From Mustelus asterias (lineage: Eukaryota): 64,000 bases of DNA. The stretch lies in NCBI RefSeq assembly GCF_964213995.1, contig NC_135825.1, positions 12,772,001 through 12,836,000 on the forward strand. Reading direction: 5' to 3'. Position 1 is the first letter of the stretch. The number at the start of each line of letters is the position of its first letter. The notes below the pieces were generated by a model that was not told the DNA's origin, ran no database searches, and saw only the letters and a list, made by a program, of their open reading frames with translations. A program made the position numbers and the translations under genes. Below, piece by piece: positions 3,911 to 63,764 of the stretch.

Positions 3911-4631
3911 TATTTTATTTAATTAGTTTTGAATTTGTGTTTTTTAAAATGTTTTAACTGTTTTCATATCTCTGCTTATTATCTCAATCTGAATGCAACT
4001 TATAACCGGCAATTTAACACAGATTCAAATTTAGCAGATTCCCGATTAGCTAATCAAATCACAGCCTTACTCTGAAGTTACTTTTCAGTTCCCCCCAGCT
4101 GAAACACTCAGAATCAGATTCCCTTACCGTCTCAGGTTATTCTCCGGCTCGCTCCCACTCTGTCCACTCCTGAAGTCAGGCCCACCACTTACCTGCCGGC
4201 TGTGACGACACGGTTCGATTTCTTTTTACCTTTCTCTTGCCCTCGAGTCTCCCTCGCAGGTCCATATCTTGGCTCCACCCAAAGACAAGTGCCTCTTTCC
4301 CCTCTGTGCCGAATTCCCACTCAGCTCCAAATTCCCGATACCCTCACTCTGGCTGAAATCTCACTCAGGCTGCAGTCTCTCTCCCACTGGCGTGCGCAGG
4401 CTCAGTGGTATCCGTAGTGAGCAACATAAAATTCTGGCCTGTGTCTGTGCAGTGCTTTGAAGGCATGTTGGTGAAATGAAGCAGCACAAGGAATTTGATC
4501 TTAACAATGTAATTTGATCCATCATTGCAAAGGAGATTGTTACAACAATGAAATGGGACTTTTTACTTGGTTGTTATTTAGTTGATTCAGATCGAGCTGT
4601 TAATAACCTTTCCTCATTAACATCCCCATAG

Positions 4632-4961
4632 GTTCATGTCAATTAACTGGACCCAAGGAGGTTAGTGGCCAATTAGGAGGATCAGTCACTGTGAAATGTC
4701 AGTATGATCTGAAATACAAGGACCATGTTAAACAATGGTGCAAAGGTAATTATTACTACCTGGTTAAATGTCCTGTTGTGGTTTCTACTAAAAAGCCGGA
4801 AGAAGGAAGAATATCACTGACTGATAACAAAACACAAGGGATATTTTCAATAACCATGGATAACCTAATGAAGAGTGATGAAGGGCAATATACCTGTGTG
4901 ATAGAAACACCAACATTTGAATATAATCAACGGATTTCTATTGATTTGAAAGTTTCTCAAG
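4632..4961 (+). CDS. Gene 1 (CD300/pIgR-like inhibitory receptor): Ig V-domain exon
   Basis: Acceptor cccatag|, donor G|gtaaga, phase 1-1, 330 nt open. Translates SCQLTGPKEVSGQLGGSVTVKCQY...KQWCKG...KCPVVVS...GRISLTDNKTQGIFSITMDNLMKSDEGQYTC...DLKVSQ: B/F-strand Cys plus the extra WC..C pair typical of CD300/pIgR/TREM V domains. Confidence 0.93.
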
Positions 4962-5439
4962 GTAAGATGCAAACGTATTTCTATTTAATTTATTCTGCCT
5001 CAATTTAAACATTTTGAAATCAGAAATCCCACCTGTCCAATCAGCGGGCCAGCTTAACCTTGGCAGTGTCACCAATTCCCATGGCCACTGCTGAGGCTAC
5101 AGGGGGAAGGTGAAGGGACTCCATGCTGAGGCCCCATCAAAGAAAACATATTTTTTTAAACCGAGCTGGGGCCTGGTGGGCAGGCCTCAGTAACCCGGGG
5201 CATGCACACTCCATCAGGAACACCCTAGCACGGAGGGGATCATTACTGATTGGTGGGCATCTCCACGGGCCATCTGCAGCCACAGAGGAGGCCTCCCCTT
5301 CCAGTGAAACAACTGGGACAGCAGCCAGGGTTTATCCGGAAGTCTCAACATGTGTTAGCAGCTGCTTCCAATGCCAGAAAATTGCTGATTGCAGCAGTGG
5401 ACAATTAATTGGTTTAATTGCAGAGAGGCCGTGGCACAG

Positions 5440-12890: not shown

Positions 12891-12972
12891 AGAATGAACT
12901 TAGGAGGAATGTTGTCTAATGATATCAGATCTGTCTGTCTCATGCCCCATATATCACAATTGTATTTTACAG

Positions 12973-13079
12973 TGTGGAAGCCTGGCATGTGACCCTACCA
13001 ATAGTTATGGTGCTAATTATCCTACTGCTCAGCACCGCTCTTATTCTTTATGTGAAACTAAAGCAGCAGAAGAAAAACG
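12973..13079 (+). CDS. Gene 1: transmembrane exon (uncharged TM)
   Basis: Acceptor ttttacag|, donor G|gtgcgt, phase 2 to 1. Encodes SVEAWHVTLPIVMVLIILLLSTALILYVKLKQQKKN: hydrophobic helix followed by a basic stop-transfer cluster. Confidence 0.88.
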
Positions 13080-31415: not shown

Positions 31416-31714
31416 TTAAAACTTAGACATTTGTGACCATGGCAAAAAACAACTTGACTCCTTCAAATAAAAATATCAAGAAAGTTTATCTATTTTTTAT
31501 TAGAATAAAAGGAGTTTGCACACAATTTCTGGAGGCGGTACAAAGCATTTCAGATTGTCATAAAGTATAAAATACTGCAATATTGCAAAGTAACTTCCAA
31601 AAGCAAGTGGGAATATTCTGGATATTCGTGTAGGAATTAGTCAATCTTCCGAGCAATCTTCGAATCAAGCTCTGATCCATTTATGTTCTGTGGTTGAGGT
31701 TTCCACATAACCCA

Positions 31715-31764
31715 TCATTTGCTCACCTGGGGAGCTGAAGGAGAAATTAATTTAAGCAACTGGA
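31715..31764 (-). CDS. Gene 2: candidate terminal exon (short tail VQLLKLISPSAPQVSK*)
   Basis: Pyrimidine-rich acceptor tttcacttcatccattttcgacag|, phase 1, open to TGA; minus-strand AATAAA at about 31496-31501. Alternative: the TM exon is terminal. Confidence 0.4.
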
Positions 31765-32879: not shown

Positions 32880-32986
32880 CTGGGTCTTTTGCAAAATGTG
32901 CATAGCATGTGACTGAAACAGTGCAAGCAACCAGAGCACTCAAGAGCAGCCAGCGGAATATCGCCCATATCTCCAACAGAACGTCT
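32880..32986 (-). CDS. Gene 2: transmembrane exon with intramembrane Arg
   Basis: Acceptor ttttgtcag|, phase 2. Encodes DVLLEIWAIFRWLLLSALVACTVSVTCYAHFAKDP, followed by possible donor G|gtataa; read-through gives GIIF* at 32866. Confidence 0.85.
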
Positions 32987-34035: not shown

Positions 34036-34745
34036 ATGGAGGAGCAGAGGGATCTAGGTGTATGTGTGCATAGATCCCTGAAAGTTGGGAATCAAGTAGA
34101 TAAGGTTGTTAAGAAGGCATATGGTGTCTTGGCGTTTATTGGTAGGGGGATTGAATTTAGGAGTCGTAGCGTTATGTTGCAACTGTACACAACTCTGGTG
34201 CGGCCGCACTTGGAGTACTGTGTGCAGTTCTGGTCCCCACATTACAGGAAGGATGTGGAGGCTTTGGAGAGGGTGCAGAGGAGGTTTACCAGGATGTTGC
34301 CTGGTATGGAGGGGAGATCCTATGAGGAGAGGCTGAGGGATTTGGGATTGTTTTCGCTGGAAAGGCGGCGGCTAAGAGGGGATCTTATTGAAACATATAA
34401 GATGATTAGAGGTTTAGATAGGGTGGATAGTGATAGCCTTTTTCCTCTGATGGAGAAATCCAGCACGAGGGGGCATGGCTTTAAATTGAGGGGGGGTAGT
34501 TATAGAACCGATGTCAGGGGTAGGTTCTTTACCCAGAGGGTGGTGAGGGATTGGAATGCCCTGCCAGCATCAGTAGTAAATGCGCCTAGTTTGGGGGCGT
34601 TTAAGAGATCCGTAGATAGGTTCATGGACGAAAAGAAATTGGTTTAGGTTGGAGGGTCACAGTTTTTTTTTTTAACTGGTCGGTGCAACATCGTGGGCCG
34701 AAGGGCCTGTTCTGCGCTGTAATGTTCTATGTTCTATGTTCTATG
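34036..34745 (+). mobile_element. Young CR1 3' fragment, near-identical to 962-1678
   Basis: The 203-aa ORF differs from the C-terminus of the 1067-2182 ORF at only 2 residues (apart from the first); same 3' UTR and tail. Confidence 0.97.
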
Positions 34746-35048: not shown

Positions 35049-35079
35049 CTTGAGGTATTGTTGGAAACTTCTGAATTTC
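35049..35079 (-). CDS. Gene 2: 31-nt stalk micro-exon
   Basis: Acceptor acaatag|, donor AG|gtaaga, phase 1 to 2. Encodes GNSEVSNNTSR; the only exon I found that links D2 (phase 1) to the TM exon (phase 2). Confidence 0.72.
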
Positions 35080-36818: not shown

Positions 36819-37145
36819 CTTCAGTAATTGTCAAGTTTTTGATCGCTACGATCTTTATGTCATTGATTTTTTCTGCTCCACACCAATACTCTCCTTCATC
36901 GCCTTTGTCTATGTTAGTCATGGTAACGGTAAAATTATGAGAATTATTAATAGTGATTGAAACGTTCCCATTATTCCGATTCTCTGTAACTCCATCAGAG
37001 CTGGCAATAATAATACATTTATTTACAGAGGTTGCTTTACACAAGAATTTCTTATAGAGTCTCTCCTTCTCCGTGAACAGACACGGTATAATGGTGGCAT
37101 TTCCCACAACACCACTGACCTCTGATAGGATTGGTTCCCATCTAC
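36819..37145 (-). CDS. Gene 2: membrane-proximal Ig V exon D2
   Basis: Acceptor atcaacag|, donor G|gtaagg, phase 1-1, 327 nt. GRWEPILSEVSGVVGNATIIPCLF...YKKFLCK...KC...FTVTMTNIDKGDEGEYWCG...NLTITE. Confidence 0.9.
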
Positions 37146-44047: not shown

Positions 44048-44305
44048 TGTGACCCTTTAAGGGGAAAGGCGTTCTCGTGAGCCACATGATCCCGCCGGAC
44101 CCAATGGATTGTCAAGGCCGGAAGCTGAGCCAATCAGCAAGAGGGTGCGTACCATGGATCTTACAGTTGGAACCAGGGAACCAAGTTGTTGAGTTGCATT
44201 GTAATTCAGCCTGACCTTGTTGTATATATAATATATATATCCGTATTGTTGGCAATAAATCCTTTATTGGTTCAAGCCACATTGAGTCACCCTCGATCTA
44301 TTACA
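44048..44305 (+). mobile_element. Solo-LTR-like copy of the Gypsy LTR
   Basis: TGTGACCCTTTA...AATAAA...CTATTACA; homologous to 48669-49565; no TSD recognised. Confidence 0.65.
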
Positions 44306-44871
44306 ATGTTACTATGGAGACACACAGCATTGAATTAAATCTCCTTCCAAACCTGCAAAATGTAACACCTAGAAGGAGGAGGGAAGCAGGTGCATGGGAA
44401 CACCACCACTTACAAGCTCCCCTCCAAAACACGCACCATCCAGACTGGGGAATATATCGCCGTTCCTTCACTGTCACTGGCTCAATCCTGGAACTCCCTC
44501 CCTAACAGCACTGTGGGTGTACGTACACCACATGGGCTGCAGCAGTTGAAGAAGGCAGCTCACCACCACCTTCTCAAGGATAATTAGGGATGGGCAATAA
44601 ATGCTGTTTTAGACACATCCCGTGAATGAATCAATAAAAGAGGCTTGCGTGGAATATGATTTTTGGTTTGTAAGAGTAAAGGAGGAAAGGATGTGGAAAT
44701 AGGTTAATGGAAATGGATAGAAATGGGAATATGGGAGGTCACTACTTGTACATGAGGAGTTGTGATAATATTTTATTAATCTGAGTTCACACAGCACACA
44801 GCAGCTGTCCTGTGTTATTGCAGCCAGATCACATTATCAGTGCTATAATCAATCTTCTGAAATATTCTTAC

Positions 44872-45192
44872 CTGAGAAAACCTTCAGTATTATAACATCT
44901 GAAATATGTATTTCGGGTAGAGGTCCACACCAGTATGTTCCTGTATCTGTCTCCTGAAGTTGTTGTATGGTTACAGAAATGTTACCATTGGTATCAGCGA
45001 TCGATGTTCTTCCATCAACATTCCAACCTCTGTCTCCGTCAATGCTCGATATCAGATTGCAACAGTTTTTTGAAGTTTCCTTACACCACCAGATTTCTCG
45101 GTGTTTTTGCTGTGTTGCCTGTGGACATTCCACAGTGATGGTTTCTCCCACTGCAGCTTTCATCACTATCGAGGCAGTTTGTGTCCATAAAA
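44872..45192 (-). CDS. Gene 2: Ig V exon D1b (tandem duplicate of D1a)
   Basis: Same acceptor/donor context as D1a, phase 1-1, 321 nt, open. LWTQTASIVMKAAVGETITVECPQ...IWWCKETSKNCC...LQETDTGTYWCG...ILKVFS. Confidence 0.9.
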
Positions 45193-45744
45193 CTGTTGGT
45201 GAAACATAATGTTTTAAGAAAGCTGGAAATATCCCAACAACCAATTGTAGACAATCCTTTTGGTCCAATGCTAGCCAGTGCTTCACAAGGGGACACACAC
45301 AAGTCCTGGGTGGGACTGGAATCAAGAATCTTACAGCAGAGAAGGAGGACATTCGGCCTGTCATGTCTGTGCTAGCTCTTTGAAAATTTATTGTCCAGTT
45401 GAATCCCACGGCCCAACTTCCCCCACAACCCTGCACATTAATCCCCTCTAAACACATGTCCAATTGCCTTTTAAATCCCTTCCTCATTTTCAATACATTG
45501 ATTCGGTTTCTCTTTAATATTTTCTGTTTCAAGAACAATAATCCCAGTTTCTCCAATCTGTCCACATAACCAAACTCCCTCATCCCTGGCATCATCCTGG
45601 TAAATCTGCTCTGTGTCCTTGCCCCCTTCCTCGAGTGTGGTGCCCAGAATTGAACCCAGTACTCCAGCAGAGACCTAATCAGTGATTAGTAAAGGTTTAG
45701 TGGAACTCCTCATTTCTCTAATTAATAGTCCAATTTTATTTATT

Positions 45745-46048
45745 TATTTATTTATGAATTGTCACAAGTAGGCTTACATTAACACCGCAATGAAGTTGCT
45801 GTGAATATCCCCGAGTCGCCACACTCCGGCGCCTGTTCGGGTACACTGAGGGAGAATTTAGCATGACCAATGCACCTAACCAGCACATCTTTTAGACTGT
45901 GGGAGGAAACCTGAGCACCCGGAGGAAACCCACACAGACACGGGGAAAACATGCAGACTCCACACAGACAGTGACCCAAGCCAGGAATTGAACCCAGGTC
46001 CCTGGTGCTGTGAGGCAGCAGTGCTAACCACTGTGCCACTGTGCCATC
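45745..46048 (-). mobile_element. V-SINE, alternative tail subfamily (also 47162-47455 plus; 51088-51397, 52045-52332, 55495-55762, 58020-58310 minus)
   Basis: tRNA-like head and V-core followed by ...GGCGAC.AGGGGATTTTCACAGTAACTTCATTGCAGTGTTAATGTAAGCCTACTTGTGAC tail. Confidence 0.85.
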
Positions 46049-46259
46049 CCCAAGAAACCCACAACTGCCTCTCAACCTGCCCTTCCACCAGTGGGGTGTT
46101 GCTGTCAGAGTGCACCGGAACCCAACTCCAGCACCTCCAAACGAGGCCTGGGGACAAGCATGAGGAGGCCCTGGGGAGGCGAGCTGGCCACAACGCCCAG
46201 GAGTGAGACTCTGTTGAGCAAAGCCCTAGGCCATGATGGAGGGTGGGAGAGGATGACTA

Positions 46260-46260
46260 C

Positions 46261-46296
<36 letters not shown>

Positions 46297-46715
46297 CGTG
46301 CGGGCGTGAAAGAGAATGTGTGTGAGGGAGAGAGTGAGTGTGAGAGAGAGAGTGTGTGAGGGAGAGAGTGAGTGTGAGAGAGAGAGTGTGTGAGGGAGAG
46401 AGTGAGTGTGAGAGAGAGTGTGTGTGAGGGAGAGAGTGAGTGTGGGAGAGTGTGTGAGGGAGAGAGTGAGTGTGAGAGAGAGTGTGTGTGAGGGAGAGAG
46501 TGAGTGTGAGAGAGAGAGTGTGTGCATGTGTGTGTGTGTGGAGAGAGTGAGAGAGAGTGAGAGAAAATTAGAGTGCGTGTGTGATTGGGAGAGAGAAGAA
46601 GAGAGAGATAGTGTGTGTGTGTGTGTGTGTGTGTGTGCGGGAGTGAGAGAAGGTGTGTGAGCAAGAGAGTGAGAGAGAGTGTGTGAGAGGGAGAGTGTGT
46701 GTGTGAGAGAGAGAC
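46260..46715. repeat. Compound (GT)/(GA) microsatellite with 26-28-bp higher-order units
   Basis: Repeated gtgtgagggagagagtgagtgtgagaga. Confidence 0.93.
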
Positions 46716-46759
46716 AGGATCAAATGTGGAAAAGAAATACTCCCAGATAGATAAGGAAA

Positions 46760-48668
46760 ACTTGGTGGTCATTTATGGGCGACATTTTACAATAGTTTCA
46801 GACCACAAGCCATTGTTAGGTCTATTTAGAGAAGAGAAGCCAGTGCCACTCTGCTCTTGAGCAGACACAATTAGCCGTTGCCTTTGCCACAAACAGTCGC
46901 ACCACCACCGGTTCCTCAAGAGATTATACTGGCTCTGCATCTGGTAGAGACCTTGCCAGTCTCGGCGAAACAGATAAAACTGTGGAGAAAAAGAGAGCCG
47001 GTATGGTCAGAAGTAAAGAAGATGGTAACGCAAGGGTGGCGATATAAGTCAGAGTAGCTCAAACCCTACCAAAGGAGATGGATGGAGATAACCTGTGAAG
47101 ATGGGGTGTTGCTGCGGGTGGCTAGAGTTATAGCGCTACCACAGGGCAGATGACTCCAGGAAGGCATGGTGGCACAGTGGTTAGCACTGCTGCGTCACAT
47201 CGTCAGGGACCAGGGTTTGATTCCCGGCTTGGGTCACTGTCTAAGTCGTGTCTGGTTATTCTCCCCGTGTCTGAGTGGGTTTCCTCCGGGTGCTCCAGTT
47301 TCCTACCACAGTCCAAAGATGTGCGGGTTAGGTGAATTGGCCACGCTAAATTCTCCCTCAGTGTGCCCGGAGAGGCGCCGGACTGTGGCAACTTGGGGAT
47401 TTTCACAGTAACTTCATTGCAATGTGAATGTAAGCCTACTTGTGACTTTAACTTTAACTCCTGTTACAAGAACTGCACCACTCTCATCGAGGTCAAAGTA
47501 GAATGAAGGCCCCACGCATATGTATTTTCACCAGGCATTGGCAGGGAAACAGAATGGATGGTTTGTCAATGCCATAGTTACGAAGCTCAACGGGCTTCAC
47601 CATCACAGGTGAATTTGCACCATTGGGAATGGCCTGGTCGACCTTAGTCGAAGTTACATTTGGATTTTGCCGGGCCATTTCTGGGTCATATGTTTCTTAT
47701 ATTAGTTGTAGTTGGATATGCAGTTGATGAAGTCCCCAACAGCCACGGACACCATTGATCGATTGAGGAAATTCTCTGCTATCCGTGGCATTCCGGAAGT
47801 GGTTGTGTCGGACAATGGCACATCATTCACTGTGGAAGAATTCCAAAAATTCCTCAAGCCCAATGGCATTCACCATGTGAGGTCAATACCTTCCCTCGAA
47901 GCCTCAAATGGACCAGTGGAGAGTGTGGTACAAACATTCAAATCATCAATAATAAAACAAGTAAACTGTCCTCTTCCTTTATGTATGGACAGTTTTTTGT
48001 TGTCTTATAACCCCACCCCAAACGTGACCACAGGGGTTACTCCAGCAGAGTTACTGATGGGATGCCAGTTAAGAACACTATTGGACATGATATTCCCAAA
48101 TCTGGCAGGGAGTGTGCAGTCCTTCAGAAGGAAAACTGTGATTCAGGAAAAGGAAACAAAGTGTTTCAAGCGGGGGGTGCAGTCTTGGTTCCAAATTTTA
48201 CACCAGGCCCGTCCTGGGTGGCTGGTAAAGAGAACAGGACTGGTCTCCGACATTGTGGAGATACAAGGCTGTCGGCTCAGGTAGACCATTGAAGGAGGAG
48301 AGACTGATGGACGCAGAGGATCAACAGGTGCCCCCTGCAGTTGGTTGAACTTTGCCGGGGTTGGTTACTGGGATTTTGGTGGAGAATGTGGGAGCGCAGC
48401 AACCGCTGGTTGTGGAGACTGAGGAACCAGAAGCTGCTGAAGAGCCACCAGACCCTGGATTGATGAGTCTGCCTTTCCCGTCTGTCCCGTCTGGCCCTTT
48501 AAACTTAGGAGAGCAAACCACTGAACTGAGGCGCTCTGCCAGAGACCGGAATCCTCCGGACTGATTAAACCTTTGATGGGTTTTCCATTTCTGTCACTCT
48601 TTTCACTTTAACACTAATCCTGTTCTTTATTCCTCCATAGTTGTATTTCGGATTTTAGGGGGAAGAAT
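46760..48668 (+). mobile_element. Degraded Gypsy LTR-retrotransposon internal region (RNase H / integrase)
   Basis: TIVSDHKPLLG (RNase H), LHHWEWP, GIPEVVVSDNGTSF...SNGPVE..VQTFK (integrase); ends in PPT AGGGGGAAGAA directly before the LTR TG. Confidence 0.85.
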
Positions 48669-49565
48669 TGTGGCCCTTTAATTGGGGTGGGGGAGTGTTT
48701 AGAGGGCCATGTGATTGGGTCAGGCCCTGTGGATTCTCAAGCCTGGAAGCTGAGCCAATCGGCAAGAGGGTGTGAATCATGGGTTGAGGAACGTTTTGCA
48801 TTTGGAGCCAGGGAGCTGAGTAGCAGATTCGCATTGTAATTCAGTCTGACCTTGTTGTGTGTATATATATATATATACTTATTGCGAACAACAAAGAACA
48901 GTACAGCACAGGAACAGGCCCTTCGGCCCTCCAAGCCTGTGCTGATCATGTTTACCTATCTCAACCGAACGCTTAGATCCCTCTATTCCCCGTTTGTTCC
49001 TATGCCGATCGATATAAGTCTTAAATGTGACTAAAGTAATTGCCTCAACCACCTCACTTGGGACTGCATTCCAGGCCCCCACCACCCTCTGTGTAAAAAA
49101 CTTCCCCCGCACATCTCCACTGAACCTTTCCCCCCTTATCTTGAACTTGTGCCCCCTTGTAATTGTCATTTCTGCCCTGGGAAAAAGCTTCCAACTGTTC
49201 ACCCTATCTATACCACTCATAATTTTATAAACTTCTACCAGGTCGCCCCTCAGCTTCCGTCTTTCCAGGGAGAACAACCCCAGTTTATTCAACCTCTCCT
49301 CAGAGCTAATACCCTCCATACCAGGCAACGTCCTGGTAAACCTTTTCCTCACTCTCTCCAATGCCTCCACATCCTTCTAATGGTGTGGTGACCAGAATTG
49401 GACACAGTATTCCAAATGTGGCCGAACCAACGTTTGAGACAATTGTAACATAATTTGCCAACTTTTATACTCGATGCCCAGTCCGATGAAGGCAAGCATG
49501 CCATATTGTTGGCAGTAAAGTCTTTATTGATTCAAGCCACATTGAGTCACCCTCGATCTATTACA
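48669..49565 (+). mobile_element. Gypsy 3' LTR interrupted by a CR1 fragment (about 48887-49503, minus)
   Basis: Follows the PPT; TGTGGCCCTTTA...CTATTACA; CR1 ORF 48879-49370 lies inside. Confidence 0.75.
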
Positions 49566-50112
49566 AGTTACTCTGGAGACACAAAGCAATGAATTAAATC
49601 TCCTTCCAAACCTGCAACATCTAACACCTAGAAGGAGGAGGGAAGCAGGTGCATGGGAACACCACCACTTACAAGCTTCCCTCCAAAACACACACCATCC
49701 AGACTGGGAAATATATCGCCGTTCCTTCACTGTCACTGGCTCAATCCTGGACCTCCCTCCCTAACAGCACTGTGGGTGTACGTACACTTCATGAGCTGCA
49801 GTGATTCAAGAAGGCAGTTCAAGGATAATTAGGGATGTGCAATAAATGCTGTTCCAGACACTCACATCGCATGAAAGAATCAATAAAGGAGCCTTGGGTG
49901 GAATATGATTTTTGGTTTGTAAGAGTATAAATGGAAAGCTGTGGATATAGGTTAATGGAAATGGATAGAAATGGGAATATGGGAGGTCACGACTTGTACA
50001 TGAAGAGCTGTGATAATATTTTATTAATCTGAGTTCACACAGCAGCTGTCCTGTGTTATTGCAGCCAGATCACATTATCAGAGCTATAATCAACCTTCTG
50101 AAATATTCTTAC

Positions 50113-50439
50113 CTGAGAAAACGTTCAGTAATATAGCATCTAAAGCATGGATACTGTTTTGTCCTTGAGGTCCACACCAGTATGTTCCTGCATCTGTCTC
50201 CTGAAGTTTTGTTATGGTTACAGAAATTTTACCATTGGTATTCGCGATCGACATTCTTGCATCATCATTGCTGACACTGTGTCCGGAAGTGCTCACTATC
50301 GAATTGCAATAATTATATGAAGTTATCTTACACCACCAGATTTCTTGGTGTTTTTGCTGTGTTGCCTGTGGACATTCCACAGTGATGGTTTCTCCCACTG
50401 CAGCTTTCATCACTATCGAGGCAGTTTGTGTCCGTAAAA
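50113..50439 (-). CDS. Gene 2: Ig V exon D1a
   Basis: Acceptor ccaacag|, donor G|gtaaga, phase 1-1, 327 nt. LRTQTASIVMKAAVGETITVECPQ...IWWCKITSYNYC...ISVTITKLQETDAGTYWCG...LLNVFS. Confidence 0.92.
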
Positions 50440-52890
50440 CTGTTGGTGAAACATAACATTTTAAGAAAGCTGGAAATATCCCAACACCCAATTGGAGACA
50501 ATCCTTTTGGTCCAATGCTAGTCAGTGCTTCACGAGGGGACCCACACAAGTCCTGGGTGGGACTGGAATCAAGAATCTTAAAGCAGAGATGGAGGACATT
50601 CGGCCTGTCATGTCTGTGCCAGCTCTTTGAAAATTTATTGTCCAATTGAATCCCACGGCCCAGCTTCCCCCACAACCCTGCACATTAATCCCCTCCAAAC
50701 ACATGTCCAACTGCCTTCTGAAAGTTCCTTTGGAATCTCATTCCATCGCCATTCCAGGTGGTGTATTCCGCACCATAACAATCTTCTGCATGAAATAATT
50801 TCCCCTCATTTATCCACTGGTTTGTATTCCAACTATTTGAAATCTATGATCACTGGTTCCTAATCCACCAGCGAGAGGAAATAATTGCTCTCTCCACTTG
50901 CTGTATTAAAACCCTTCCTCATTTTCAATACATTGATTAGATTTCCCTTTAATCTGCTCTGTTCCAAGGACTATTATCCCGGTTTCTCCAATCTGTTCAC
51001 ATAACCAAACTCCCTCATCCCTGGCATCATCCTGGTAAATCCGCTCTGTGCCCTTGCCTCCTTCCTTCGGTGTGGTGCCCAGAATTGTAAAGTAAAGTTT
51101 ATTTATTAGTCACAAGTAGGCTTACATTAACACTGCAATGAAGTTACTGTGAAAATCCCCTCGTCGCCACACACCGGCACCTGTTCAGGTACACTGAGGG
51201 AGAATTTAGCCTGGCCAATGCATCTAACCAGCAAGCCTTTCAGACTGTGGGAGGAAACCGGAACACCCTGAGGAAACCCACGCAGACACGGGGAGAACGT
51301 GCAGACTCCACACAGACAGTGACCCAAGCCAGGAATCGAACCCAGGTCCCTGGCACTGTGAGGCAGCAGTGCTAACCACTGTGCCACTGTGCCGCCCCTT
51401 TTTATATCCCCATACCTGGAGTACCCAATACTCCTGTAGTGAGCAGTAAAGGGTTAATGTAACTCCTCATTTTTATAATTAATATTCATATTTAAAGCAC
51501 ATTCTGCAGGTCAGCCCCTCAGCCTAGCACTGGGGTGAGGCCAAGCCAGTCGATTTCAAGCCTGTATTCTTCCAGAAGAAACAATATATCCTGCTTTTCG
51601 AGTAATGTCCTTTTTTCCTTTGTGTTATCACAAGCAGGAGTGAATCAGGTAATGGCCTCAATTATAGAACCTCAGCACCAGGGCTGTGATCTCGTTCATC
51701 TTCCCAGCCTGATAAATATTTTATAAAGATAAAAACCTGGGTCATGTGAAGCCACATTCTCTATGAACAGAGAGGCTCCTTTCGACCCCAGAGGTTTTGT
51801 CCGTGTCTCTTTTAGTCGCATTTGAAGGAGAAACGCAACATCTAAAATGTAAAATTGATATATATTATGAAGCGATGTTAATTGGTCAGAAATGACGGTG
51901 TGTTATCTTGTGCAATAGAAAGGATGACAGGAAAGATAGTTGAGGGCGCAGGCAAGAATTTCTTCAACATGATATTTGCTCAACATGTTGGGAAGTAATG
52001 GATTTAATCCGTATCCTGAGATATTTGATTTCCATGTGGGCAAAGTAGTAAAGTTTATTTATTCGTGTCACAAGTCTGCTGATATTGACATTGCAATGAA
52101 GTTACTGTGAAAATCCCCTAGTCGCCACACTCAGGTGCCTGAGGGAGAATTTAGCATGGCCAATGCATCTAACCAGCGCGTCTTTCAAACTGTGGGAGGA
52201 AACCGGAGCACCCGGAGGAAACCCACAGACACGGGGAGAACGTGCAGACTCCGCACAGGCAGTGACCCAAGCTGTGAATCGAACCCAAGTCCCTGGCACT
52301 GTGAGGCAGCAGTGCTAACCACTCTGTCACCGTATTTCACAGCACAGAAAGAAACTCTACTGCCCATCATTGAAACTGCAGAACTCTCGAGAAGAACTAT
52401 CGAGGCTGTCCTATTCCCCATCTTCCTCTCTTTTCTTTACTTCAGGTATGAAAGGTATGATGGATTCTATTCCTATCGCTATCTCTGGGTGGCAGGAGTG
52501 AGCGCCATGTGGGTTTCTAGATTAATTTGCAAATTATACACGTCTGTTCACATTCCTGTAATGTCTTCTGATATTCCACTATCCCCCTCCCTGAGGGAAC
52601 TCTCCATTCCTCTGAAACCAAGTGCCCCACCATTAATGGCCGTGTTTTCAACTAGATCCAACCTTTTGAAACTCTGTTGTCAAAACTCTTCTCCTCGCCA
52701 ATTCCCTCTCCCCCTCTTCAAAACCCTTCTCTTCGACTGAGCTTTTGGTTCACCCTTTCCACCTGCCCTCCTTTGGCCCAGAGTCTGTGTTTCTTCACTC
52801 CTCTGTGAAGAACGTTGAACCATTTTCCTCAGATGAAGATTTTACATAAACATGAACTTTCATTCCAAATATAGAACTGGAAAATCTTAC

Positions 52891-52930
52891 TTGATATCAA
52901 AGTGAGGAGCAGCAACTCGGTGAACCTCAT
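52891..52930 (-). CDS. Gene 2 (CD300/pIgR-like activating-type receptor): leader exon
   Basis: Kozak-like ggaccATGA; encodes MRFTELLLLTLIS, then phase-1 donor A|gtaag. Joined to the next exon it gives signal peptide MRFTELLLLTLISILRTQTA. Confidence 0.85.
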
Positions 52931-61589: not shown

Positions 61590-62502
61590 GTGGGATTGTG
61601 ATCAGTGCAGACCTGATGGGCCGAATGGCCTCTTTCTGCACTGCAGGGATTCTATGATTCTATGAAACAAGAGCTTGTAGCTCATCAAAGAAAACACAAG
61701 ACTATATTTGGAAGGTGGCGATAAATAACCACGTGGTGAGGAAGACCAGTTTTTGTGCTGCCCCCTTTTATTCAAAGATTCAGGGCACGATCTTACCGGT
61801 CGTTCACGCCCCACTGCCGCTGCAAGCGAGGATGGAGAATTTGGTGTTCAGCCAAATCTCTGTTCACTGCAGCGGGACCGGAAAATCACGCTGACAAGAA
61901 TGGCGGGAAAATCCCGTCCTCAGTCTTCAGATAACGCCTGGAAAGATGCCAGCTGCAGCAGGTGAGGCAGTGTTATCTTTGCCTTTAAAGACCCAGGGCA
62001 AGAATTCTCCAGCCGTTCATGCCCCGTGGCCGATGTCAGCAAGAACGGAGAAATTGGCCCTCAGCGGGACTGGAAAATCCGAGCTGCAAGCGAGATCGGA
62101 GAATCCAGCTCCAGGTGGCCAAAACTCCAAGTCCATCTGTGAATAAATTTTTGTAGGATGGTATTGGGATCCTGGTCTTCTGTGACTTTTAGGGGATTAA
62201 ACTTTAAAACTTAGACATTTGTGACCATGGCAAAAAACAACTTGACTCCTTAAAATAAAAATATCAAGAAAGTTTATCTATTTTTTATTAGAATAAAAGG
62301 AGTTTGCACACAATTTCTGGAGGCAGTACAAAGCATTTCAGATTGTCATAAAGTATAAAATACTGCAATATTGCAAAGTAACTTCTCAAAGCAAGTGGGA
62401 ATATTCTGGACATTCGTGTAGGAATTAGTCAATCTTCCGAGCAATCTTCGAATCAAGCTCTGATCCATTTATGTTCTGTGGTTGAGGTTTCCACATAACC
62501 CA

Positions 62503-62552
62503 TCATTTGCTCACCTGGGGAGCTGAAGGAGAAATTAATTTAAGCAACTGGA
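62503..62552 (-). CDS. Gene 3: candidate terminal exon
   Basis: Identical to 31715-31764 and in the same context. Confidence 0.38.
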
Positions 62553-63657
62553 CTGTCGAAAATGGATGAAGTGAAATACTTTGAGAGACACTGGCTGAAA
62601 CATAGGCGAAAGAATGGTTGGGTATATCCTCACATAAGTGCTGAAGTGTGTTTGCCATAATCTCAAACAGTGATATTGTTCAAGTTTCCTGGGGTAGGGG
62701 GAACTTTCTATTTTGCGTGCGGTGCCCATAGCCCTGGCGCCCATCTTGGGGTTCCAGGTTCTACAATGCAATATACTTAGTGGCACTTTCCGGCCCGCTC
62801 GCCCCAAGACCAGAAAACCCCGCCCGAAGTCATCTGCTCTGATTCCCACGGCGGGCCAGACAGGAAAATTCCACCAACTGTTTCTGATCCAGGAACACTG
62901 CTGGTGTTCTTTTATCCATGTTCCAAGTCAGATTGGATTCTTAAGGGGCTTGACAGGGTAAATGCTGAGAGAATGCTTCCCATCATGGGAGAGTCTAGGG
63001 CCAGAGGGCATGGTCTCAGAATAAAGGGGCACCAACTTAAGACTGAGATGAGGAGGAATTTCTTCTCTCAGAGGGCGGTGAGTCTTTGGAACTCCTTGCC
63101 ACAGAGAGCTGTGGGGGCAGAGTCCTTGAGTATATTTAAGACCGAGATAGATAGATTTTTGATCAGTAAAGGAATCAAGGGTTATGGGAAAGGGCAGGAA
63201 AGTGGACGGAAGGAATGTTGGGAACAGCCATGATCCTGTTGATTGGTGGAGCAGGGTTGAGGGGCCGAACAGCCTTCTCCTGTTCCTGTTTCTTATGGTC
63301 TTATGGCCACCTTTGTCCACAAGCGTGCATTTTAAATAAACATTGAATGAAACTGAGTGCTTTGTATCCACTGCCTACTTGGAATTTTCCCATCTTGGAC
63401 TCCCATGTGTAACTGAAAAACTGCAGATGAACTGACATTTTATCCTTTCTATTAACAAACATAAAATTCACTCCAGCAGTTCTTGTTCTAACACTGGCCT
63501 GGTGATAATGGTTCATTCGGTTCGATTTCTCGAGGAGGAATCATTTTCTTGTGGATTTTTTTGCTGTGTTTTTTCAGCAACTTTCAAAGTGCCTCAGCTT
63601 TTAGGTTGAAGTTAAATATCTATAAATATTAGAGGAAACAGATTTAAAATATTATAC

Positions 63658-63764
63658 CTGGGTCTTTTGCAAAATGTGCATAGCACGTGACTGAAACAGT
63701 GCAAGCAACCAGAGCGTTAAAGAGCAGCCAGCGGAATATCGCCCATATCTCCAACAGAACGTCT
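63658..63764 (-). CDS. Gene 3 (paralog of gene 2): transmembrane exon; upstream exons lie beyond the window
   Basis: Near-identical to 32880-32986 with the same splice sites. DVLLEIWAIFRWLLFNALVACTVSVTCYAHFAKDP. Confidence 0.83.

Follow-up and report, generated by a model that had tools for sequence, protein, structure and literature searches.

A pair of duplicated V exons, D1a and D1b, follows one leader in gene A of the shark Mustelus asterias, and the question is whether splicing chooses between them or places both in the same mRNA. Our analysis of the surrounding window (the whole stretch of 64,000 nucleotides) indicates that the two are probably spliced in together, the main product being a three-domain receptor of activating type with two differing V domains at its tip. 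One D1 may occasionally be skipped.

Exon organization of gene A

Exon modelling places gene A on the minus strand in the order leader–D1a–D1b–D2–stalk–TM(Arg)–short tail. The model is identical to NCBI model P0003 (390 aa) and has the following parts:

52891..52930, minus strand: phase-1 leader of gene A, 13 codons and 1 nt
50113..50439, minus strand: D1a, a 327-nt V-set exon with 4 Cys, of the CD300/pIgR type
44872..45192, minus strand: D1b, the duplicate, a 321-nt V-set exon with 5 Cys
36819..37145, minus strand: D2, V-set exon (identity to D1 about 30%)
35049..35079, minus strand: stalk exon (31 nt; from splice sites and paralog copies)
32880..32986, minus strand: transmembrane exon with Arg in the helix (from splice sites, paralog copies and an AlphaFold helix at 347–381)
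31496..31734, minus strand: last exon (6 codons, stop, and 3' UTR to AATAAA at 31501–31496)

D1a and D1b are 86.3% identical in nucleotides and share the acceptor ..CAACAG, the donor GTAAGA, phase 1-1, open frames and a start of the form L[R/W]TQTASIVM, all as an earlier sequence-only reading of this DNA had described. Given the 13-residue leader, these first residues presumably form the end of the signal peptide. D1a and D1b each match the Pfam V-set above the cut-off, and the extra Cys of D1b adjoins the C–C' cysteine. The intron between the copies is 4920 nt long, GT–AG and U2-type, the lengths of 327 and 321 nt are both divisible by 3, and all donors in gene A are of GTAAG/GTATAA type (0 of U12 type). 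The Arg-bearing transmembrane segment appears to be of activating type; the protein ends about 13 residues beyond it, and the last exon carries no tyrosine motif.

The leader at 52930–52891 is the sole hydrophobic ATG-to-donor candidate in a scan of 36000–64000, blastn detected no second copy within the window, and the leader sequence occurs five times in 264 kb (the window and the adjoining 200 kb), once per complete gene. These results agree with the single leader that had been proposed; a second leader, named beforehand as evidence against a shared one, was looked for over the same ranges and not found. The absence of a transmembrane exon between D1a and D1b also held up: a hydropathy scan (threshold 2.3, at which gene A's own Arg-bearing segment was also missed) gave no transmembrane-like stretch in the interval, and a search with paralog exons gave no copy of the gene A transmembrane exon there. 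Branch-point-like motifs lie 19 and 31 nt past the D1a donor; they were rejected as distant branch points because the 4.9 kb intron has many AG dinucleotides and identical motifs follow D1b.

A duplicated unit in a cluster of paralogs

The duplication extends past the exon. The segment at about 51393–49501 matches 46045–44241 in three pieces at 88–91% identity, and an inverted SINE lies between the copies:

49501..51393, minus strand: first duplicated unit, made up of a SINE, D1a and intron on both sides of the exon
44241..46045, minus strand: second duplicated unit, made up of a SINE, D1b and intron on both sides of the exon
47159..47447, plus strand: inverted SINE copy (80–89% complementary to the SINEs at 45747–46045, 51098–51393 and 52054–52333)

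Four of the five complete nearby paralogs (A, B, C and E) have the doubled D1; gene D has a single D1. The paralogs are 95–98% alike over kilobases. Genes A–D share the Arg transmembrane exon and short last exon, and gene E has a different transmembrane exon and, in its tail, three tyrosine motifs (P0005). Near-identical ectodomains joined either to a charged transmembrane segment and short tail or to a tyrosine-motif tail are the mark of a paired-receptor cluster, and gene A would be paired with gene E as its inhibitory paralog. The inverted SINE sits after D1a in all four doubled genes, a layout that is common to the paralogs through descent.

All four NCBI models found for M. asterias contain D1–D1, and none (0/4) has a single D1 behind the leader. 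These models are not independent proof because P0001 fuses three paralogs (B, C and D), each with its own leader and transmembrane segment, into one 936-aa protein. All 16 near-full chondrichthyan relatives have the two-domain form, which, judged from these sequences, is ancestral. The D1 doubling is lineage-restricted, since the relatives in other sharks and rays are two-domain.

We propose that an intragenic duplication of a 4.6–5.6 kb D1 unit preceded expansion of the cluster and would have been followed by gene conversion between copies and by one secondary loss, in which gene D appears to have shed a D1 unit by deletion. The signal-peptide remnant that opens D1b would then act as a linker of roughly 9 residues, and signalling would proceed via an ITAM adaptor through the transmembrane Arg.

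Sequence change in the D1 copies

Every one of the nine D1 exons in the cluster has an open frame and intact AG/GT splice signals. At least 98 substitutions separate them with 0 stops, an outcome with a simulated chance of 0.005, or 0.0003 with the 4 Cys kept. Between D1a and D1b, non-synonymous change (38/246, 15.5%) exceeds change in the flanking intron (49/820, 6.0%; p=8e-6), and synonymous change (6/72) does not differ from the intron (p=0.44). Changes among the D1 exons are unevenly spread, with 1 in the first 83 nt and 97 in the other 244. A divergence matrix of the upstream introns was left out, being confounded by repeats. With nine of nine exons open and amino-acid change exceeding that of the intron, neither copy looks dead, and the pattern suggests diversifying selection on the ligand-facing loops of D1.

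Predicted fold and splice evidence

Joint inclusion as L-D1a-D1b-D2 is in frame, and the AlphaFold model of this product contains three separate V domains joined, at residues 122–130, by a loose linker of low confidence. The alignment has few rows over D1a, where pLDDT is 63–79. The top Foldseek matches of the gene A model are to pIgR, with TM-scores of 0.22–0.28 that are low because of domain orientation. Among solved structures, pIgR domains, CD300A and CD300LF/CLM-1 match D1a and D2 best.

Contigs were searched with D1b and its flanks in four of 21 listed runs. No RNA run that contains the gene A sequence is among the 21, and no junction of gene A itself occurs among the listed contigs of the four. 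In run X10, from a related organism, the end of a D1 is followed directly by a D1 start in two contigs among the matches listed. Their sides measure 39 and 31 letters, the depth is about 3.6, and neither contig branches where D1 ends; the one of 347 letters is consistent with a precise join of exon end to exon start (305+6+36). These joints, confined to one of the four runs and to another organism, could also derive from single-exon circular RNA or a non-orthologous duplication.

Run X21 carries the same organism label as the best-matching runs, holds a 0.20 share of D1a's sampled words and has a depth of 2–5, at which rare forms are lost from contigs. By difference counts and listed letters, both paralog B copies, D1a and D1b, are represented among its exon-only contigs; no contig among the matches listed fits A_D1a or A_D1b. 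The one leader>D1 contig among the matches listed joins a leader of paralog type to a D1 start, fits B_D1a, B_D1b, C_D1a or D_D1 and is unbroken through the stretch common to all D1 copies; a D1>D1 entry was not assembled. The one D1>D2 contig among the matches listed fits C_D1a or D_D1 (15 edits), and its neighbour contigs fit D_D1. Since gene D has a single D1, it would account for both, and no skipping junction among the listed contigs of the four runs can be assigned to a doubled gene. Run X1 has one leader>D1 contig. In run X2 a 600-letter contig passes the D1 end by about 326 letters without a joint; this is about the size of D2, which the segment may represent. Two runs, possibly from the assembly's own sample, hold 0.83 of D1a's words.

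Alternative readings of the doubled exon

The sequence-only reading had offered alternative transcripts. The three-domain transcript among them is in frame, corresponds to the NCBI model, gives a three-domain fold and has counterpart joints in a relative; the mutually exclusive use of D1a and D1b as alternative ligand-binding domains found no support. D1a and D1b are tandem exons of like length, sequence and frame, as in the mutually exclusive exons of PMC5740500, in the part of that article available to us. The three enforcing features described there (a frameshift, a U2/U12 mismatch, a donor–branch distance <50 nt) are all absent, and the intron measures 4.9 kb. Each D1 exon encodes a whole domain in the AlphaFold model, the available text would reject an in-frame pair joined as in X10 if the joint were true of gene A, and no non-repeat, docking/selector-like inverted pair is evident among 24 listed, the long pairs all being repeat-derived. 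Strict exclusion is therefore unsupported, lacking any barrier of frame, splice type or distance and facing whole-domain exons and the D1>D1 contigs of the relative. A strict, Dscam-like choice remains very unlikely even though both copies are diversifying, both carry the presumed signal-peptide end and the same splice sites, and many human clusters in the same text lack obvious enforcement.

Cassette splicing, with three-domain, D1a-only and D1b-only mRNAs all sizeable and perhaps steered by competing SINE pairing, strikes us as doubtful. Each single-D1 form would be in frame (283 and 281 aa), gene D lives with the ancestral two-domain form, and the SINE at 47159–47447 could, from its complementarity, form a duplex spanning D1a or one confined to the intron, so that inverted pairs flanking D1a could promote its optional skipping. 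However, such pairs are common anyway, there being 104 matches to this kind of SINE in 264 kb; the sole assignable D1>D2 junction has the gene D type of D1, and the X10 contigs do not branch. It is quite unlikely that pairing on either side of D1a picks the displayed V domain, which would make the tips switchable and the diversity Dscam-like and transposon-built. That one D1 copy of gene A is a dead duplicate, never included, is highly improbable: a young duplication (6% intron divergence) is expected to hold few disabling changes, and X21 has no gene A contig among the matches listed, but open frames, intact splice sites, the excess and clustering of amino-acid change and the presence of both paralog B copies in exon-only contigs speak against it. 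The dead copy that had been named in advance as a refuting case was sought and not found. Paralogs 95–98% alike can trouble assemblies, yet D1a and D1b differ by 14% and have distinct flanks, the layout recurs in four genes with a shared SINE position before each second copy, the 264 kb contain 0 N, and D1a's words are well represented in two runs; with no second leader detected either, an assembly artefact or a separate leader or promoter for D1b has a negligible chance of being correct. Joint inclusion of D1a and D1b is the reading that we carry forward.

Relationship to known receptors

All nine D1 exons have the YWCG motif and 4 or 5 Cys (an extra C–C' bond), as in V-set domains of the CD300/pIgR/TREM type. 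The cluster resembles CD300/CMRF35, pIgR and TREM in its V-set, four cysteines, YWCG motif and activating and inhibitory (P0005) forms side by side. Tweety and EBP50_C (TTYH2/NHERF1), which we take to be neighbours of human CD300, have no match on the cluster's contig. Mammalian CD300 has one V domain, according to the accessible part of PMC3031540, whereas the shark genes carry two or three V exons. Skate MDIR, by the same account, is a multigene family known from cartilaginous fish, with activating and inhibitory members and a likeness to CD300, TREM and pIgR; we liken it to the shark cluster by that description.

The "pIgR-like architecture" that had been suggested stands as a resemblance. 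Mammalian pIgR likewise has an all-V ectodomain from tandem exons. In contrast to long-tailed, transcytosing pIgR, gene A encodes a tail of 13 residues and a transmembrane Arg and belongs to a multigene paired cluster. RASSF5 and PFKFB2 presumably mark the human PIGR region; their counterparts (a RASSF5-like gene and PFKFB2) lie on the cluster's contig at 19.28 and 20.73 Mb, and the cluster at 12.6–13.0 Mb is 6.3–8 Mb away, outside their interval. A search for the IL10 family gave no match anywhere, and a TBK1_CCD1 match occurs on contig C1656 only.

In the zebrafish PIGR-like cluster, as far as the available part of PMC4016189 goes, two- and three-Ig-domain members stand side by side among recent, near-identical genes, as in the shark; the shark third domain differs in being a young D1 copy, and comparison of the paralogs shows where it was gained and lost. 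The same part reports PIGR homologs absent from sharks. Such receptors are little described in this group. We found no publication on this cluster or its splicing; the subscription literature was thinly covered, so prior publication is possible. The doubled D1 is an ordinary kind of immune-gene expansion, and its mechanism is not new. On the favoured reading, its value is as a datable case of a two-domain CD300/pIgR-type receptor gaining and losing a V domain in a paired-receptor cluster under probable diversifying selection, and as a model for the origin of multi-V ectodomains such as that of pIgR. It would weigh more if splicing did select one copy over the other, or if shark IgM proved to be a ligand.

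Arthropod Dscam1 and the human atlas of mutually exclusive exons are alike in having tandem duplicate exons of similar length, phase and sequence, but joint inclusion in gene A keeps the frame and gives a three-domain fold, D1>D1 joints occur in a relative, and no enforcing feature was found. Rodent PSG/CEACAM genes have multiplied their leader-proximal V exon internally, and the copies are all spliced in one after another. These genes belong to another family, and PSG is secreted.

Domain organization of gene A

Gene A, the CD300/pIgR-type receptor gene of the window, contains two first V exons (D1a and D1b) between one leader and the next V exon (D2):

52930-52891, minus strand: leader exon, phase 1
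50439-50113, minus strand: D1a, 327 nt, open in the frame of the phase-1 leader
45192-44872, minus strand: D1b, 321 nt, open in the frame of the phase-1 leader
37145-36819, minus strand: D2, downstream of D1b
downstream of D2: stalk exon, 31 nt
32986-32880, minus strand: TM exon, with an arginine within the helix
last exon: six codons

The doubled D1 is real, and a three-domain model already exists at NCBI: leader, D1a, D1b, D2, stalk, TM and last exon joined give 390 residues, identical to P0003 (polymeric immunoglobulin receptor-like, Mustelus asterias). Reading the sequence bears out the coordinates and open frames that the sequence-only reading assigned to D1a and D1b, the acceptor and donor that they share, and the N-terminal start L[R/W]TQTASIVM in each. 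Its single leader is equally correct. A motif scan and blastn found no match to a second one, and a separate leader for D1b, or an artefactual doubling, can be set aside with near certainty. Both exons encode V-set domains, with pIgR domains and CD300 proteins as the closest solved structures, and are 86.3% identical; the duplicated unit also takes in flanking intron and an upstream SINE. Single-D1 forms are in frame too (283 and 281 residues), so frame alone is no guide to D1 choice.

In A and its paralog B, the second copy (321 nt) has a fifth cysteine beside the C-C' cysteine (CC; 45064-45059 region of D1b in A), possibly free for an intermolecular disulfide. The stalk–TM intron of gene A holds a very young LINE-like insertion, absent from the paralogs, whose inverted counterpart matches it over 709 nt at 99.6% identity (969-1677 versus 34037-34745).

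Tandem inclusion and its alternatives

We consider it probable that both D1 copies of gene A are live and diversifying, and that they are included in tandem. D1a and D1b would be spliced together ahead of D2, placing three V domains in one receptor, with the leader remnant at the D1b start as the linker between the D1 domains. An AlphaFold model contains three separate V domains and a low-confidence linker (122-130) of leader remnant; joint inclusion is therefore predicted to be structurally easy. The suggestion that one copy might be a dead duplicate was not borne out. All nine D1 exons of gene A and its paralogs are open with intact splice sites, with at least 98 substitutions among them. 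In a rough simulation that ignores gene conversion, random placement of 98 substitutions gave no stop in 0.5% of cases, and no stop with four cysteines kept in 0.03%. Between D1a and D1b, 38/246 non-synonymous sites differ versus 49/820 in flanking intron (p=8e-6); synonymous differences (6/72) do not depart from the intron. The D1 changes number 1 in the first 83 nt versus 97 in the other 244, and the pattern resembles that of diversifying selection on used domains. A dead D1 in gene A is thus very unlikely. In the D2 exons of A–E, where changes are few, amino-acid change likewise exceeds silent change (mean pN 0.037, pS 0.008).

The splicing alternatives of the sequence-only reading fared differently: its three-domain form agrees with P0003 and with transcript joints from another organism, whereas its mutually exclusive form lacks three of the known means of enforcement. 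By PMC5740500, an in-frame exon pair for which exon-joining reads exist does not count as mutually exclusive, and mutual exclusion can be enforced by a frameshift, by U2/U12 mismatch, by a donor-to-branch distance below 50 nt or by competing RNA structure. D1a/D1b show no frameshift, U2/U12 mismatch or short donor-to-branch distance. Among 24 inverted pairs listed, the long ones all derive from repeats; the SINE at 47159-47447 can base-pair either with SINEs lying upstream of D1a or with that before D1b. This inverted SINE occurs after the first D1 of each of the four doubled genes, shared by descent, and has 104 hits in 264 kb. Transcript data comprise contigs of four runs among at least 21 matching, aligned to D1b at 80% likeness, of guessed or unrecorded kind and with coverage limited to the exon, stopping at splice sites. 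In run X10, which is from the other organism, the end of a D1 is joined to the start of a D1 in two different contigs. The 347-letter contig is consistent with an exact junction between exons, and no branch occurs at the exon end in either contig, a picture that fits linear tandem splicing better than a circle. Strict mutual exclusion is very unlikely. Run X21, which shares its organism label with the best-matching runs, contains one contig linking a type B–E leader to the start of a D1 and another linking the end of a D1 to the D2 start. Difference counts assign the latter contig to the D1 of paralog D (or C_D1a), and neighbouring contigs fit D only; it is explained by this single-D1 gene and is no sign of skipping. 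Sizeable cassette skipping, which the in-frame single-D1 forms would permit, is unlikely. Further contigs of X21 match B_D1a with 10 and 3 differences and B_D1b with 5, and with 6 where 5 were expected; RNA thus seems to include both copies of B. Against tandem inclusion count the lack of an assembled D1–D1 joint in X21, X1 and X2, and of any fit to gene A's own D1 exons among the contigs listed.

History of the paralog cluster

The window (C25:12772001-12836000) and the next 200 kb hold five complete paralogs, A–E, with one leader and one D2 apiece; D1 is doubled in A, B, C and E and single in D. D and C are 98% identical either side of a gap corresponding to C's second unit, indicating that the single D1 of D is a secondary loss. 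The SINE position before each second copy is common to the genes, so the D1 duplication is older than the gene expansion. The two D1 copies of C are 96% alike across 2.3 kb, an apparent sign of gene conversion after duplication. The order of events would be intragenic D1 duplication, gene expansion, then conversion in C and loss of one unit in D. Among 25 related proteins, D1-D1-D2 occurs in three, all from Mustelus asterias, and D1-D2 in 16 other chondrichthyan proteins covering 62-69% of the query (13 aligned, 3 read); the rest are one partial match and five non-chondrichthyan proteins. The doubling thus appears lineage-restricted among annotated species.

Paralogs A–D share the Arg TM and a short tail, whereas the TM of E is of another kind and its tail carries three tyrosine motifs (P0005). 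This is a paired activating/inhibitory layout, with the signalling predicted from known families. Both E isoforms keep both D1 copies; P0004, listed by NCBI without stalk and TM exons, is possibly secreted.

Model P0001 (936 aa; C25:12854399-12958000) strings B, C and D together by D2-to-D1 splices, yet all three possess a leader, stalk, TM and last exon of their own, and P0001 is probably an annotation merge. A (D1-D2)x3 form also occurs in catshark model P0002; read-through of B–C–D, if real, would yield a long pIgR-like ectodomain. A truncated sixth copy on the minus strand (window 62258-63764 and L018:1030-3510; C25 about 12834260-12839510) comprises last exon, TM, stalk and D2 with a 1-nt frameshift; no D1 or leader was found for it. 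B–E run in the opposite orientation to gene A and this copy.

Relation to known receptors

In mode of working the cluster would resemble CD300/pIgR-family paired receptors, but it differs from CD300 proper in having more than one V domain and from pIgR in the short tail of gene A. It also lies outside the interval from RASSF5-like (19.28 Mb; C25:19282797) to PFKFB2 (20.73 Mb; C25:20726883), 6.3-8 Mb off though on the same contig. RASSF5 and PFKFB2 flank the human PIGR/FCMR/FCAMR region, and their presence suggests that the C25 chromosome corresponds to it. The cluster would also resemble the zebrafish PIGR-like clusters, which have members with two or three domains (PMC4016189). Skate MDIRs, as described second-hand in PMC3031540, may be the named family of these receptors. 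On the plus strand, window 4628-4970 and about 12920-13060 hold another CD300-like gene, with a single V exon and an uncharged TM exon; 70-140 kb before the window there are three more distant V exons (L010, L011, L013).
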